From NCBI RefSeq assembly GCF_003334765.1, contig NZ_QOWT01000005.1: DNA of 64,000 nt; one strand, given 5' to 3'. A model generated the notes under the pieces. The model did not search any database. It was not told the DNA's origin and was given only the letters and a program-made list of their open reading frames with translations. Within the stretch, counting starts at the first letter, position 1. Each line of letters opens with the position of its first letter. The DNA is from Escherichia coli (GTDB lineage Bacteria; Pseudomonadota; Gammaproteobacteria; Enterobacterales; Enterobacteriaceae). Of the stretch, positions 16,988 through 29,651 are shown piece after piece. The translations under genes were made by a program, and so were the position numbers.

Positions 16988-17725
16988 ATGCTATATATCT
17001 TTCGTCTTATTATTACCGTGATTTACAGCATCTTAGTCTGTGTATTCGGCTCCATTTACTGCCTTTTCAGCCCGCGTAACCCGAAACATGTGGCCACCTT
17101 TGGGCATATGTTTGGCCGTCTTGCGCCGCTGTTTGGCCTGAAAGTTGAGTGCCGTAAACCTACAGACGCTGAAAGCTACGGCAATGCTATCTATATCGCT
17201 AACCACCAGAACAACTATGACATGGTGACAGCATCGAACATCGTGCAACCGCCGACGGTGACGGTAGGTAAAAAGAGCTTGCTGTGGATCCCCTTCTTCG
17301 GGCAGTTGTACTGGTTAACCGGCAACTTATTGATCGACAGAAACAATCGCACTAAAGCTCACGGCACCATTGCGGAAGTAGTGAATCACTTCAAAAAACG
17401 CCGTATTTCCATCTGGATGTTCCCGGAAGGAACCCGCAGCCGTGGTCGCGGCCTGCTACCGTTCAAGACTGGAGCATTTCACGCGGCAATTGCGGCGGGC
17501 GTCCCGATTATTCCCGTGTGCGTCTCTACAACTTCGAATAAGATTAATCTTAATCGACTGCACAACGGTCTGGTGATTGTCGAAATGCTGCCGCCAATTG
17601 ACGTCAGTCAGTATGGCAAAGATCAGGTTCGTGAGCTGGCTGCCCATTGTCGTTCGATAATGGAACAAAAAATCGCCGAGCTCGATAAAGAAGTCGCAGA
17701 ACGCGAAGCCGCCGGAAAAGTTTAA
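16988..17725 (+). CDS. plsC: 1-acyl-sn-glycerol-3-phosphate acyltransferase
   Basis: 245 aa; HxxxxD acyltransferase motif (ANHQNNYD) and FPEGTRS motif. Confidence 0.9.
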   Translation: MLYIFRLIITVIYSILVCVFGSIYCLFSPRNPKHVATFGHMFGRLAPLFGLKVECRKPTDAESYGNAIYIANHQNNYDMVTASNIVQPPTVTVGKKSLLWIPFFGQLYWLTGNLLIDRNNRTKAHGTIAEVVNHFKKRRISIWMFPEGTRSRGRGLLPFKTGAFHAAIAAGVPIIPVCVSTTSNKINLNRLHNGLVIVEMLPPIDVSQYGKDQVRELAAHCRSIMEQKIAELDKEVAEREAAGKV

Positions 17726-19322: not shown

Positions 19323-21542
19323 ATGAGCTCTATCTCCCTGATCCAACCGGATCGCGACCTGTTCTCCTGGCCGCAGTACTGGGCCGCCTGTTTTGGACCG
19401 GCACCGTTTTTGCCGATGTCTCGTGAAGAGATGGATCAACTTGGCTGGGATAGCTGCGACATCATTTTGGTTACTGGCGACGCGTATGTCGATCACCCAA
19501 GCTTCGGGATGGCGATTTGCGGTCGTATGCTGGAAGCACAGGGCTTTCGCGTCGGGATCATCGCCCAGCCAGACTGGAGCAGCAAAGACGATTTCATGCG
19601 TCTGGGTAAACCGAATCTGTTTTTCGGTGTTACTGCTGGCAACATGGATTCGATGATCAACCGTTATACCGCCGATCGCCGTTTACGTCATGACGATGCC
19701 TACACGCCGGATAACGTCGCGGGTAAGCGCCCGGATCGCGCCACACTGGTTTATACCCAGCGTTGTAAAGAGGCGTGGAAAGATGTACCGGTGATCCTCG
19801 GCGGTATTGAGGCTAGTCTGCGCCGTACCGCACATTATGATTACTGGTCCGATACCGTGCGCCGTTCCGTGCTGGTGGATTCGAAAGCCGACATGCTGAT
19901 GTTTGGTAACGGTGAGCGTCCGCTGGTGGAGGTGGCGCACCGTCTGGCGATGGGCGAGCCGATTAGTGAAATCCGCGATGTGCGTAATACCGCGATTATC
20001 GTGAAAGAGGCGCTGCCTGGCTGGAGCGGCGTGGATTCCACCCGTCTTGATACCCCTGGAAAAATCGACCCAATCCCGCATCCGTATGGTGAAGATTTGC
20101 CGTGCGCGGATAACAAACCGGTGGCACCGAAAAAGCAGGAAGCCAAAGCCGTAACCGTGCAGCCACCGCGCCCGAAACCGTGGGAAAAAACCTACGTGTT
20201 GCTGCCTTCTTTCGAGAAAGTGAAGGGCGATAAAGTGCTGTACGCCCATGCTTCGCGTATTCTGCACCACGAAACCAACCCAGGCTGTGCCCGCGCATTG
20301 ATGCAAAAACACGGCGACCGCTATGTGTGGATCAACCCGCCTGCTATTCCGCTTTCTACCGAAGAGATGGACAGCGTTTTTGCGCTGCCATACAAGCGCG
20401 TGCCACATCCGGCCTATGGCAATGCCCGTATTCCGGCTTACGAAATGATCCGTTTTTCGGTCAACATTATGCGTGGCTGCTTTGGCGGCTGCTCTTTCTG
20501 TTCTATCACCGAGCACGAAGGGCGCATTATTCAGAGCCGTTCCGAAGATTCGATCATTAATGAGATCGAAGCGATCCGCGACACCGTTCCAGGTTTTACG
20601 GGCGTGATTTCCGATCTTGGTGGGCCAACTGCCAACATGTATATGTTGCGCTGCAAATCGCCACGCGCTGAACAAACTTGTCGCCGTTTGTCGTGCGTTT
20701 ATCCGGATATTTGTCCGCACATGGACACGAACCACGAACCAACGATCAACCTCTATCGCCGTGCGCGTGATCTGAAAGGCATTAAAAAGATCCTGATTGC
20801 CTCTGGTGTGCGTTATGACATAGCCGTAGAAGATCCGCGCTATATCAAAGAACTGGCGACCCATCACGTCGGCGGTTATCTGAAGATTGCCCCGGAACAT
20901 ACCGAAGAAGGGCCGTTATCGAAGATGATGAAGCCGGGCATGGGCAGCTATGACCGCTTTAAAGAGCTGTTCGATACTTACTCAAAACAGGCAGGTAAAG
21001 AGCAGTATCTGATCCCCTATTTCATCTCCGCGCACCCCGGTACGCGTGATGAAGATATGGTGAATCTGGCGCTGTGGCTGAAAAAGCACCGCTTCCGCCT
21101 CGACCAGGTGCAGAACTTCTATCCGTCGCCGCTGGCGAACTCAACCACCATGTATTACACCGGGAAAAACCCGCTGGCGAAGATTGGTTATAAGAGCGAA
21201 GACGTCTTCGTACCGAAGGGCGACAAACAGCGTCGTTTGCATAAAGCGTTGTTGCGTTACCACGATCCGGCAAACTGGCCGTTAATCCGCCAGGCGCTGG
21301 AAGCGATGGGCAAAAAGCATCTGATTGGCAGCCGTCGCGATTGCTTAGTGCCTGCGCCAACCATTGAAGAGATGCGTGAAGCTCGTCGCCAGAACCGCAA
21401 TACCCGTCCGGCGTTGACGAAACATACGCCGATGGCGACCCAGCGTCAGACGCCTGCTACGGCAAAAAAAGCGTCGTCTACGCAATCTCGTCCGGTGAAT
21501 GCTGGTGCGAAGAAACGGCCTAAAGCGGCGGTTGGACGTTAA
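19323..21542 (+). CDS. ygiQ: Radical SAM protein YgiQ (UPF0313)
   Basis: 739 aa; CxxxCxxC cluster motif (CFGGCSFCS); basic C-terminal tail. Confidence 0.85.
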
Positions 21543-23846: not shown

Positions 23847-23950
23847 ACGTTCCTCCTTTATATGAACTCACCGGAGCAGGCTCCGGTGAGGTGTTGTGAA
23901 CTTAAGTCTGGACGAAATGCCCGAAAACGAAAGTTTGAGGCGTAAAAAGC

Positions 23951-26246: not shown

Positions 26247-26906
26247 TCAGGCGTTACAGTATTTTTTTTTAATCACCACAAACAGCGTGCCTAACAAGCC
26301 AGCGGTTAACAAGGCAATTGGCAGGATCATCAGGAACGTCATTACCTGATCTTCATGGCGTTTAACGAACGGAATCATACTTAAGGCATAGCCAAAACTG
26401 GTTACCACGCTGACCCACAGCAATCCACTTAACCAGTTGAAAAACTGGAAGCGGCGGTTTGGCAGACCGGAAATTCCCGCCATGGTTGGCAGCAGCGTAC
26501 GGACAAATGCAAGAAAACGTCCAGCCAGCAGCGCCAGCAGACCGTGGCGGTCAAACATGCAGGTGGCGCGCTGGTGATATTTAGCAGGAAGCTGTGCCAG
26601 CCAGCCTTTCACCGTTTTGGTATTCCCTAACCAGCGCCCCTGAATATAACTTAGCCAGCAGCCCAGACTTGCTGCGGCGGTCAGAATCGCAATCGTAGGC
26701 AGAAAATCCATAACCCCCTGGGCAATCAATGCGCCTGCCAGTATCAACAAGCTGTCGCCTGGCAAAAATGAGGCGGGCAGCAGGCCGTTTTCTAAAAACA
26801 GCGTGGCAAACATGACAAAGTAAACAACGCTAACAATATGAGGATCCGCCAGCGCGGCAAAGTCGTGTTGCCAGAGCGCAGCGATGATATCTTGAATAAC
26901 AGCCAT
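26247..26906 (-). CDS. yghB: DedA-family inner membrane protein YghB
   Basis: 219 aa polytopic membrane ORF. Confidence 0.85.
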
Positions 26907-27045
26907 GGACTTTCCTGTGGAACAGCGTTTAAGCCTTTATCTGCCTATTGTACTCCTGATTCGTCCGGGACGCCTTGATCCCGGACGCAACAATTTAAGA
27001 CTTTTCACAATTAAATGTCTGCAAAATTGTCCAAAAGTGGCAATG

Positions 27046-28233
27046 TTATACAATTCGCGCAAAACCGGCGTCCAGATCGGCAATCAGATCGTCGACATCT
27101 TCCAGACCAATATGCAGGCGAATCAAGGTCCCGCTAAAATCGATCTCGCCTTGTGGGCGAATGGCGGCGATATGTTCTGGTTGATTCGCCAGGATCAACG
27201 ATTCATACCCGCCCCACGAGTAGGCCATGCTGAATAAACTGAAGTTATCCAGATAGTTCGCCAGCTCTTCATTACTGAGTTTTTTCTTAAGCACAAAGGA
27301 AAATAGCCCGCTGCTACCTGTAAAGTCTCGTTTCCAGAATTCGTGGCCTTTACTGCCAGGCAGAGCAGGGTGGTTAACTCGCGCTACTTGCGGATGTTCT
27401 GCCAGCCATTCAGCCACTTTCAGACTGCTTTCATGATGTTGACGCAGGCGAACACCCAAAGTGCGCAGGCCACGGCTGGTTATATAGGCGGTATCGGCAT
27501 CGACCATCTGGCCCATCAGATAGGCATTCTCCCGCAGCTGCTCCCAGCAACGGGCATTGCACACGGCAGTGCCAATCATCGCATCTGAATGCCCAACCAG
27601 ATATTTGGTAGCGGCCTGAATGGAAACATCAATGCCAAAATCCAGCGCCTTAAACAGCACACCGGCTGCCCAGGTGTTGTCGATCATAATGATGGCATCC
27701 GGCACCACACTGCGTACGGCGGCAACAATCGCCGGAACGTCGTGGACTTCCATGGTGATGGAGCCTGGCGATTCCAGAAACACGATTTTAGTGTTTGGCT
27801 GCAGATGCTTAACGATATCGGCACCAATCAGTGGATCAAACCACGATGTCGTTACGCCCAGTTTGCTGAGGATTTTGCTACAGAAATCCTGACTCGGTTC
27901 ATAGGCGGTGTTGGTCATCAACACATGATCGCCCTGTTCGACAAAAGCAAGAATCGAATTAGCAACCGCCGCCGCCCCGCAGGGAAATAGCGCGCAGCCT
28001 GCGCCACCTTCCAGTTCACACATCGCTTGTTGTAAGGAAAAATGGGTTAACGTTCCGCGCCGCCCATAGAACAACTCGCCATTGGCGCGATTGCGTGTCG
28101 CGTGCTTTTTGGCTTCCACACTGTCAAAGACCAGCGAAGAAGCGCGCTGAATCACGCTATTTACCGCGCCGAGAGTGTATTTTTTGCTGCGTCCTGCATT
28201 CACCAGTTGAGTATCAAGCTTTTTGTCCGCCAT
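27046..28233 (-). CDS. metC: Cystathionine beta-lyase MetC (PLP-dependent)
   Basis: ORF 27046-28368; start chosen at [15 protein letters not shown] (395 aa). Confidence 0.9.
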
Positions 28234-28251
28234 GTCGGGATTCCTGTTTTT

Positions 28252-28267
28252 ATACGTCTGGATGTCT
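28252..28267 (-). promoter_or_regulatory. Two tandem metbox-like octamers (AGACATCC AGACGTAT on the minus strand) just upstream of metC; candidate MetJ operator
   Basis: Read directly; each octamer resembles the AGACGTCT metbox consensus; located 19-34 nt upstream of the metC start. Confidence 0.4.
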
Positions 28268-28395
28268 AAACTAGCATGAATATTCGCGGGCGCATCCTGA
28301 AGAATTGGCATAAAGCAGAAAATTTTCGCAAATGGCGTGCTGGTGACTTTTTTACTGCGTAAACGCAAGGAAAAGAAAGCAAAGGTACGGCAGTA

Positions 28396-28425
28396 TGCAA
28401 ATAGTAATGAGAACGACTATCAATT
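28396..28425 (+). promoter_or_regulatory. Fur-box-like AT-rich element upstream of exbB
   Basis: TGCAAATAGTAATGAGAACGACTATCAATT loosely resembles GATAATGATAATCATTATC; exbBD is Fur-regulated in E. coli. Confidence 0.3.
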
Positions 28426-28484
28426 CGACGTCGTTTTGATATTATTATGCGCAGATTTTGTGACTTGCGTCCTGGAGATACACA

Positions 28485-29219
28485 GTGGGTAATAATTTAA
28501 TGCAGACGGACCTTTCCGTCTGGGGTATGTATCAGCACGCCGATATTGTCGTTAAGTGCGTGATGATTGGGCTTATTTTGGCCTCCGTAGTCACCTGGGC
28601 AATCTTCTTCAGTAAGAGCGTAGAGTTCTTCAATCAGAAGCGTCGCCTTAAGCGCGAGCAGCAACTGCTGGCTGAAGCGCGTTCCTTAAACCAGGCCAAC
28701 GATATCGCCGCTGATTTTGGTAGCAAAAGCTTAAGCCTGCATTTGCTCAATGAAGCGCAGAATGAGCTGGAACTGTCAGAAGGCAGCGACGATAACGAAG
28801 GTATTAAAGAACGTACCAGCTTCCGTCTGGAGCGTCGGGTCGCCGCAGTAGGTCGTCAAATGGGCCGCGGTAACGGCTATCTGGCAACCATCGGCGCGAT
28901 TTCGCCGTTCGTTGGTCTGTTTGGTACGGTCTGGGGCATCATGAACAGCTTTATTGGTATCGCGCAAACGCAGACCACTAACCTGGCAGTCGTTGCGCCG
29001 GGTATCGCAGAAGCTCTGTTAGCAACGGCAATCGGCCTCGTGGCAGCGATTCCTGCGGTCGTTATCTATAACGTATTTGCACGCCAGATTGGCGGCTTTA
29101 AAGCGATGCTGGGTGATGTTGCAGCGCAGGTATTGTTGCTGCAAAGCCGTGACCTGGATCTGGAAGCCAGCGCCGCTGCGCATCCGGTTCGTGTCGCACA
29201 AAAATTACGCGCAGGATAA
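28485..29219 (+). CDS. exbB: TonB-system proton channel ExbB
   Basis: 244 aa; MotA/TolQ/ExbB family. Confidence 0.95.
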   Translation: MGNNLMQTDLSVWGMYQHADIVVKCVMIGLILASVVTWAIFFSKSVEFFNQKRRLKREQQLLAEARSLNQANDIAADFGSKSLSLHLLNEAQNELELSEGSDDNEGIKERTSFRLERRVAAVGRQMGRGNGYLATIGAISPFVGLFGTVWGIMNSFIGIAQTQTTNLAVVAPGIAEALLATAIGLVAAIPAVVIYNVFARQIGGFKAMLGDVAAQVLLLQSRDLDLEASAAAHPVRVAQKLRAG

Positions 29220-29225
29220 TATCCG

Positions 29226-29651
29226 ATGGCAAAGCATCTTAACGAAAACCTCGACGATAACGGCGAAATGCATGATATCAACGTGACGCCGTTTATCGAC
29301 GTGATGTTGGTTCTGCTGATTATCTTTATGGTGGCGGCACCGTTAGCGACGGTAGATGTGAAGGTGAACTTGCCTGCTTCTACCAGCACGCCGCAGCCGC
29401 GCCCGGAAAAACCGGTTTATCTGTCGGTGAAGGCAGACAACTCGATGTTTATCGGTAACGATCCGGTCACCGATGAAACAATGATTACGGCGTTGAATGC
29501 GTTAACCGAAGGCAAGAAAGATACCACCATCTTCTTCCGAGCGGACAAAACCGTCGATTACGAGACGTTGATGAAGGTAATGGATACGCTGCATCAGGCG
29601 GGTTACCTGAAGATAGGTCTGGTTGGCGAAGAAACTGCCAAAGCGAAATAA
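29226..29651 (+). CDS. exbD: TonB-system component ExbD
   Basis: 141 aa; single N-terminal TM segment. Confidence 0.95.
   Translation: MAKHLNENLDDNGEMHDINVTPFIDVMLVLLIIFMVAAPLATVDVKVNLPASTSTPQPRPEKPVYLSVKADNSMFIGNDPVTDETMITALNALTEGKKDTTIFFRADKTVDYETLMKVMDTLHQAGYLKIGLVGEETAKAK

Follow-up and report, generated by a model that had tools for sequence, protein, structure and literature searches.

The two-box MetJ operator at the metC promoter of Escherichia coli

MetJ binds DNA as a ribbon-helix-helix dimer, one dimer to each metbox, with S-adenosylmethionine (SAM) as its corepressor, and, as neighbouring dimers touch, a minimum of two boxes is required. In the 1992 co-crystal of Somers and Phillips, two tandem consensus metboxes reportedly hold one MetJ dimer each, with the beta-ribbon in the major groove and a dimer-dimer contact across the box junction, and this complex is said to be the structural model for two-box sites such as the one at metC.

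Augustus and Spicer (2011; PMC3228920) state that MetJ needs two or more adjacent sites, and their Table S1 lists for metC of K-12 (Ecol_K12_MG1655, b3008) an operator of 18.92 bits with 2 metboxes, a mean of 9.46, a distance of 18 and the sequence 'agacatccagacgtat'. Per box, this mean is second only to that of ybdH/mtnE among the 12 K-12 operator rows of the table. The known E. coli operators, metC included, were studied there as 400 bp upstream of the coding sequence in lacZ fusions, in wild type versus a metJ deletion, together with gel shifts, and metC is treated as a regulated gene. A 2010 review (PMC3274233) and Leyn 2014 (PMC4239095) contain general statements only. With its sequence, score and position catalogued, the metC metbox pair is already known and is a textbook element of the methionine regulon.

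Our re-analysis concerns this site in another E. coli strain, within a stretch of 64 kb that was analysed as a whole (the window). It adds an independent confirmation of the score, a transcription start site (TSS) that lies exactly at the box junction after a conserved, putative extended -10 element, and a wider sample of orthologues across Enterobacterales.

The metC box pair and its chance expectation

Upstream of metC, the minus strand of the window reads catgctagttt AGACATCC AGACGTAT aaaaacaggaatcccgac ATG GCG GAC, and contains the following elements.

28260..28267, minus strand: metbox 1, AGACATCC, identical to the consensus AGACGTCT at 6/8 positions; 8.96 bits (PMC3228920, Table S1)
28252..28259, minus strand: metbox 2, AGACGTAT, identical to the consensus at 7/8 positions; 9.96 bits (PMC3228920, Table S1)
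27046..28233, minus strand: metC, the regulated gene, coding for cystathionine beta-lyase (395 aa plus stop); from the open reading frame and its translation

The original prediction had placed two adjacent octamers resembling MetJ metboxes on the minus strand at 28252-28267, 19-34 nt upstream of the metC ATG, and this proved exact when re-read from the sequence. The ATG occupies 28233..28231, the box pair spans -34..-19 relative to it, and 18 nt lie between box 2 and the start codon. Compared with the double consensus AGACGTCTAGACGTCT, the pair matches at 13/16 positions and has 3 mismatches; at the box junction it has C followed by A, where the consensus has T followed by A.

We scored the site with the MetJ information weight matrix of Augustus and Spicer (2011; PMC3228920, Table 3 and Methods) and applied their thresholds. 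A metbox array is defined as at least two directly adjoining 8-bp repeats resembling AGACGTCT, with at least 3.15 bits for each box (one quarter of the consensus bits) and at least 12.58 bits for the whole site (the consensus bits). As a positive control, our own weight matrix code assigned the K-12 metB/metJ operator 4 boxes and 31.18 bits at 63 bp from the metB ATG, compared to published values of 31.2 bits, 4 boxes and 63 bp (PMC3228920). The metC pair received 8.96 + 9.96 = 18.92 bits, which exceeds both thresholds and is the highest score of any tandem site within the 64-kb window, so that the proposed resemblance holds under the MetJ matrix as well. The in-register octamers that flank the pair score -9.43 and -8.70 bits. 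A third metbox on either side was rejected on these scores, and the metC operator therefore has exactly two boxes and is minimal.

We considered whether the octamers could resemble metboxes by accident, with no regulatory role. The pair is the sole site in the window with at most 3 mismatches to AGACGTCTAGACGTCT, but 16/100 dinucleotide shuffles of the window also contained at least one 16-mer within that distance; the mismatch search is therefore weak, and the published weight matrix was used instead. Under the matrix, the probability of reaching 18.92 bits or more is 1.6e-7 per position (exact convolution with the base composition of the window), so that 64 kb should contain 0.01 such sites by chance, and a 100-nt upstream region 1.6e-5. 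A weaker tandem match does occur inside a coding region, namely AGACGGCCAAACATAT at 17106..17121 (13.97 bits), which is the only other threshold-passing tandem site in the window. We dismissed it as a MetJ operator and attribute it to chance; it lies inside a PlsC-like open reading frame (16988..17725), and about one tandem site per 64 kb is expected by chance at 12.58 bits or more. The metC pair, in contrast, is found at the promoter of a methionine biosynthesis gene and is catalogued with experimental support (PMC3228920). Together with its retention in orthologues, which is described below, these data make an accidental resemblance exceedingly improbable.

A lone perfect consensus metbox, AGACGTCT, is also present at 21200..21207 without an adjacent partner, and about 0.97 such boxes are expected by chance per 64 kb.

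We found that the metC-exbB intergenic region is identical to that of K-12 MG1655 at 251/251 positions, and K-12 data therefore transfer directly to the window. The K-12 metC (b3008) operator at NC_000913.3:3152202-3152217 has the same 16-mer, the same 18-bp distance, the same 18.92 bits and the same 251-bp intergenic region, with no difference, and the 16-mer of Table S1 in PMC3228920, 18 bp from the start, is identical to the predicted pair. The window site is the K-12 metC operator itself, with the same sequence in another E. coli strain. MetJ binding, and the regulation of metC but not exbB, are taken from the literature on this identical K-12 sequence (PMC3228920), in which MetJ bound the metC/exbB intergenic fragment of K-12 in gel shifts.

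A 2.3-kb stretch around the site, annotated with metC, exbB and exbD, matches 5,425/5,426 complete E. coli genomes. The metJ gene is not encoded within the 64-kb window, and the K-12 metJ gene was found in all 5,426 of 5,426 complete E. coli genomes, so the operator is served in trans.

Two further observations concern the region within the species. Identity of at least 99% was found in 5,389/5,423 E. coli genomes over 331 bp (28170..28500), versus 346/5,425 over 2.3 kb (27000..29300); the intergenic region varies less among E. coli genomes than the coding DNA around it. One E. coli record has a copy of the metC-exbB region on a plasmid.

The operator within the metC promoter

A single metC TSS was mapped in K-12 by SMRT-Cappable-seq, at NC_000913.3:3,152,209 on the forward strand, with 121 reads in M9 (Yan et al. 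2018; PMC6131387, Supplementary Data 1 and 2), and the 3' end of the metC transcript is at 3,153,511 (PMC6131387). The position 3152209 occurs once in the supplementary file, on the M9 sheet and not on the Rich sheet (PMC6131387), which fits repression by methionine but is not proof of it. Transferred to the window, the promoter elements are as follows.

28260, minus strand: metC TSS, K-12 3152209 mapped through the identical intergenic region; 27 nt before the ATG (K-12 3,152,236)
28268..28276, minus strand: inferred extended -10 element TGcTAGTTT, with TG at 28276..28275 and the hexamer TAGTTT at 28273..28268; it abuts metbox 1
28242..28245, minus strand: probable Shine-Dalgarno core AGGA, 8 nt before the metC ATG, assigned from ACAGG being kept across orthologues

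The start site is the last base of box 1 and lies at the junction of both metboxes. In promoter coordinates, the operator covers -7..+9, with box 1 at -7..+1 and box 2 at +2..+9. MetJ operators are found in the promoter regions of genes for methionine biosynthesis or transport, where they typically overlap the core promoter and lie no more than about 75 bp from the start codon; the metC pair has this location, 18 nt before the ATG and with the TSS inside the boxes.

An extended -10 element has TG one base before a hexamer with T1, A2 and T6, and a TSS 6-9 nt downstream. The sequence TGcTAGTTT has this form, with a hexamer that ends 8 nt before the TSS, and TGnTAnnnT adjoins or overlaps the first box in 36/36 array-bearing sequences among the matches listed. 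Judged by this sequence pattern, TGcTAGTTT is the likely extended -10 element of the metC promoter. A scan of 28150..28560 for sigma-70 promoters (simple -35/-10) and terminators found nothing, and the -35 region of metC is not conserved in the orthologue alignment. A simple -35/-10 scanner could not see a promoter that apparently lacks a -35 hexamer, and both the absent -35/-10 pair and the unconserved -35 region are consistent with what is expected of an extended -10 promoter.

We evaluated TATAAA at -21..-16 from the ATG as a -10 hexamer but rejected it: it lies downstream of the mapped TSS at -27, the Shine-Dalgarno sequence would drop out of the mRNA, and TATAAA is kept in only 25/36 orthologues, versus 36/36 for TGnTAnnnT (among the matches listed).

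The box pair is almost certainly the MetJ operator at the metC promoter of E. coli, where two SAM-loaded dimers would bind cooperatively and repress metC at its start site. In the proposed mechanism, the two dimers would sit side by side on both adjoining 8-bp metboxes, occupying -7..+9 and straddling the TSS right after the extended -10 element. With the operator covering the start site and adjoining the -10 element, the bound repressor would be expected to sterically block RNA polymerase from forming or using the open complex, and we infer steric occlusion as the mode of action. When methionine and SAM are plentiful, metC transcription would then fall.

Downstream of metC, 49/121 of its transcripts run past the metC 3' end into b3009, which is the 219-aa open reading frame at 26247..26906 on the minus strand (PMC6131387). 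Consequently, b3009 is partly co-transcribed from the MetJ-controlled promoter.

The operator could also act in both directions, being common to metC and the divergent exbBD operon. The two genes have a single 251-bp intergenic region in common, and MetJ bound the exbB fragment (PMC3228920). In Figure 4 of that study, however, where black bars mark the operators bound by MetJ in the gel shift, the Ec.exbB bar is black only through the intergenic region that it has in common with Ec.metC, and exbB is not regulated in vivo (PMC3228920). The two exbB TSSs, K-12 3152066 and 3152016 (PMC6131387), correspond to 28403 and 28453 in the window; they are 143 and 193 bp from the metC TSS and well outside the operator. 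A bidirectional role is therefore highly implausible, and we retain the pair as the operator of metC alone.

Several other features were observed on the exbB side. A Fur-box-like 19-mer, AGTAATGAGAACGACTATC, at 28403..28421 on the plus strand, matches GATAATGATAATCATTATC at 13/19 positions within the highly conserved exbB upstream region; it begins at the distal exbB TSS and spans -50..-32 of the proximal one. Between the divergent promoters, a partly conserved block at 28350..28371 (minus strand TTCCTTGCGTTTACGCAGTAAAA) occupies -53..-32 of the distal exbB TSS, and from this position it is probably the -35/UP region of the distal exbB promoter. For exbB (28485..29219), all RefSeq E. coli records other than K-12 among the matches listed give the product as 'tol-pal system-associated acyl-CoA thioesterase', while K-12 gives 'Ton complex subunit ExbB'; the former looks like a naming error that has been propagated. 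An Rfam scan found nothing near the metC operator, and the sole Rfam family in the window was the ES173 sRNA (RF02753) at 23885..23948 on the minus strand, at full length and with 99 bits versus a gathering score of 90.

Conservation and lineage variants

We scanned species-representative genomes with a degenerate MetC motif pattern, which yielded at least 120 loci in a sample without Salmonella and Klebsiella. All 120 loci among the matches listed encode MetC orthologues, with 64-98% identity. The start codon was located at each locus, and the 200 nt upstream were scored using the MetJ matrix.

Where MetC is at least 77% identical, 35/38 upstream regions have a passing array, always 13-22 nt before the ATG (among the matches listed). 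These 38 loci are mostly Enterobacteriaceae, including Citrobacter, Enterobacter, Kluyvera, Lelliottia, Pluralibacter, Pseudescherichia, Kosakonia, Phytobacter, Cedecea, Siccibacter, Shimwellia, Mangrovibacter and others. By comparison, shuffled upstream controls pass in 32/7,600 cases (0.4%), a difference that further argues against accidental resemblance. An array is found in only 4/80 of the more distant loci among the matches listed, all of them Serratia. No passing array was found in the sampled Erwiniaceae, Pectobacteriaceae, Pasteurellaceae, Vibrionaceae or Orbaceae among the matches listed, even with the ~250-bp metC-exbB arrangement. In agreement with this pattern of absence, Augustus and Spicer state that only about half of the Enterobacteriales have metboxes at metC (PMC3228920).

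We aligned the whole intergenic regions of 32 non-E. coli loci from the group with at least 77% identity. A conserved island at 28279..28240, CATGnTAGTyTAGACATCCAGACGTATAAAAACAGG, is separated from the conserved exbB promoter region by a divergent stretch at 28349..28283. Within the 16-mer, positions 2, 3, 4, 6, 7, 8, 9, 10, 11 and 13 are invariant in 33 orthologues, which are positions 2, 3, 4, 6, 7 and 8 of box 1 and positions 1, 2, 3 and 5 of box 2. Variation is confined to positions 1 (A/G), 5 (A/G), 12 (C/T), 14, 15 and 16, where the substituted bases score from -1.31 to +1.46 bits; these are low-information positions, and no base is penalised by more than 1.31 bits. Invariance at the high-information positions is the pattern that would be expected if selection preserves MetJ binding.

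Alternatively, the block could be conserved as core promoter, start site and 5' leader, with MetJ binding being incidental or physiologically negligible. The TSS does lie inside the boxes, the flanking TGnTAnnnT and AAAA-ACAGG are equally conserved, and a two-box operator belongs to the weakest functional class. As the boxes take in the TSS and extend into the 5' UTR, part of their conservation could indeed stem from promoter or leader function. However, substitutions are seen only at low-information metbox positions, and G2, A3, C4, T6 and C7 never change, which is a signature of the MetJ matrix rather than of a sigma-70 initiation region. The high mean score per box, exceeded among the K-12 rows only by ybdH/mtnE, and the reported MetJ binding and treatment of metC as a regulated gene (PMC3228920) also weigh against it. 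We consider conservation as a promoter with negligible MetJ binding to be very unlikely, and continue to read the pair as a MetJ operator.

An A-tract at 28248..28251 (minus strand, transcript +10..+13) lies directly 3' of box 2 and has A in 33, 30, 33 and 23 of 33 orthologues at its four positions. Under the MetJ matrix the tract does not score as a box, and its conservation possibly reflects leader or translation effects, or a flank preference of MetJ.

Other lineages show different arrangements. At the four Serratia loci, the array aaacgtctggatggct (16.6 bits) is located 60-73 nt upstream of metC, and in one of them (L021) the array has 3 boxes and 19.9 bits. Its position is non-homologous to that in E. 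coli, and the Serratia operator therefore seems to have arisen independently or to have been relocated. At five loci from Cedecea, Entomohabitans and 'Enterobacter sp. R1', the metC operator has three boxes and up to 23.4 bits. Here, about six extra bases after TGnTAnnnT create an additional upstream box, for example TTATGTTT; one such operator reads ttatgttt agacatcc agacgttt and scores 22.9 bits.

The evidence is about evenly balanced on whether the metC operator is a lineage-specific acquisition that was remodelled more than once. This reading draws on the fixed position in Enterobacteriaceae-type loci, the absence in Erwiniaceae with the same ~250-bp spacer, the non-homologous Serratia array and the three-box group of Cedecea and Entomohabitans. 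If true, the acquisition would illustrate on a small scale how a regulon is rewired at a single promoter. In its coarse form, the lineage pattern, with metboxes at metC in about half of Enterobacteriales, is already published.

Two observations on locus organization were made in the same sample. At seven Pantoea and Mixta loci, 2.9-3.4 kb separate the start of exbB from that of metC, instead of ~250 bp, a spacing which indicates that something is inserted between the divergent genes. The genome of Yersinia nurmii has genes for two full-length MetC-like proteins on separate contigs; they share 73% and 71% identity with E. coli MetC, and no metbox array was found upstream of either gene.

Comparison with known MetJ operators

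What is mildly new here is the exact placement of the TSS at the box junction, the conservation of the putative extended -10 element, and the lineage pattern of two-box operators, three-box operators, a Serratia array and absence elsewhere. As a minimal two-box operator that was recognised from raw sequence, the metC site is also useful as a positive control.

Among the K-12 operators, that of ybdH/mtnE (agacgtttagatgtct, 21.93 bits) resembles the metC operator in having exactly two adjacent metboxes with a high score per box. The genes that diverge from it are both listed with this operator, whereas the metC operator serves metC only and not exbB. The metB/metJ, metA, metF and mmuP operators share with that of metC the tandem 8-bp repeat unit, with no spacers between copies, and a location in the promoter region of a met gene. 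They have 4 boxes each and 25-31 bits, which makes longer cooperative arrays of repressor dimers possible, while metC has the minimum of two. Compared to the boxes of the co-crystal, which are perfect consensus with T followed by A at their junction, the metC site departs from the consensus at 3 positions and has C followed by A at the junction.
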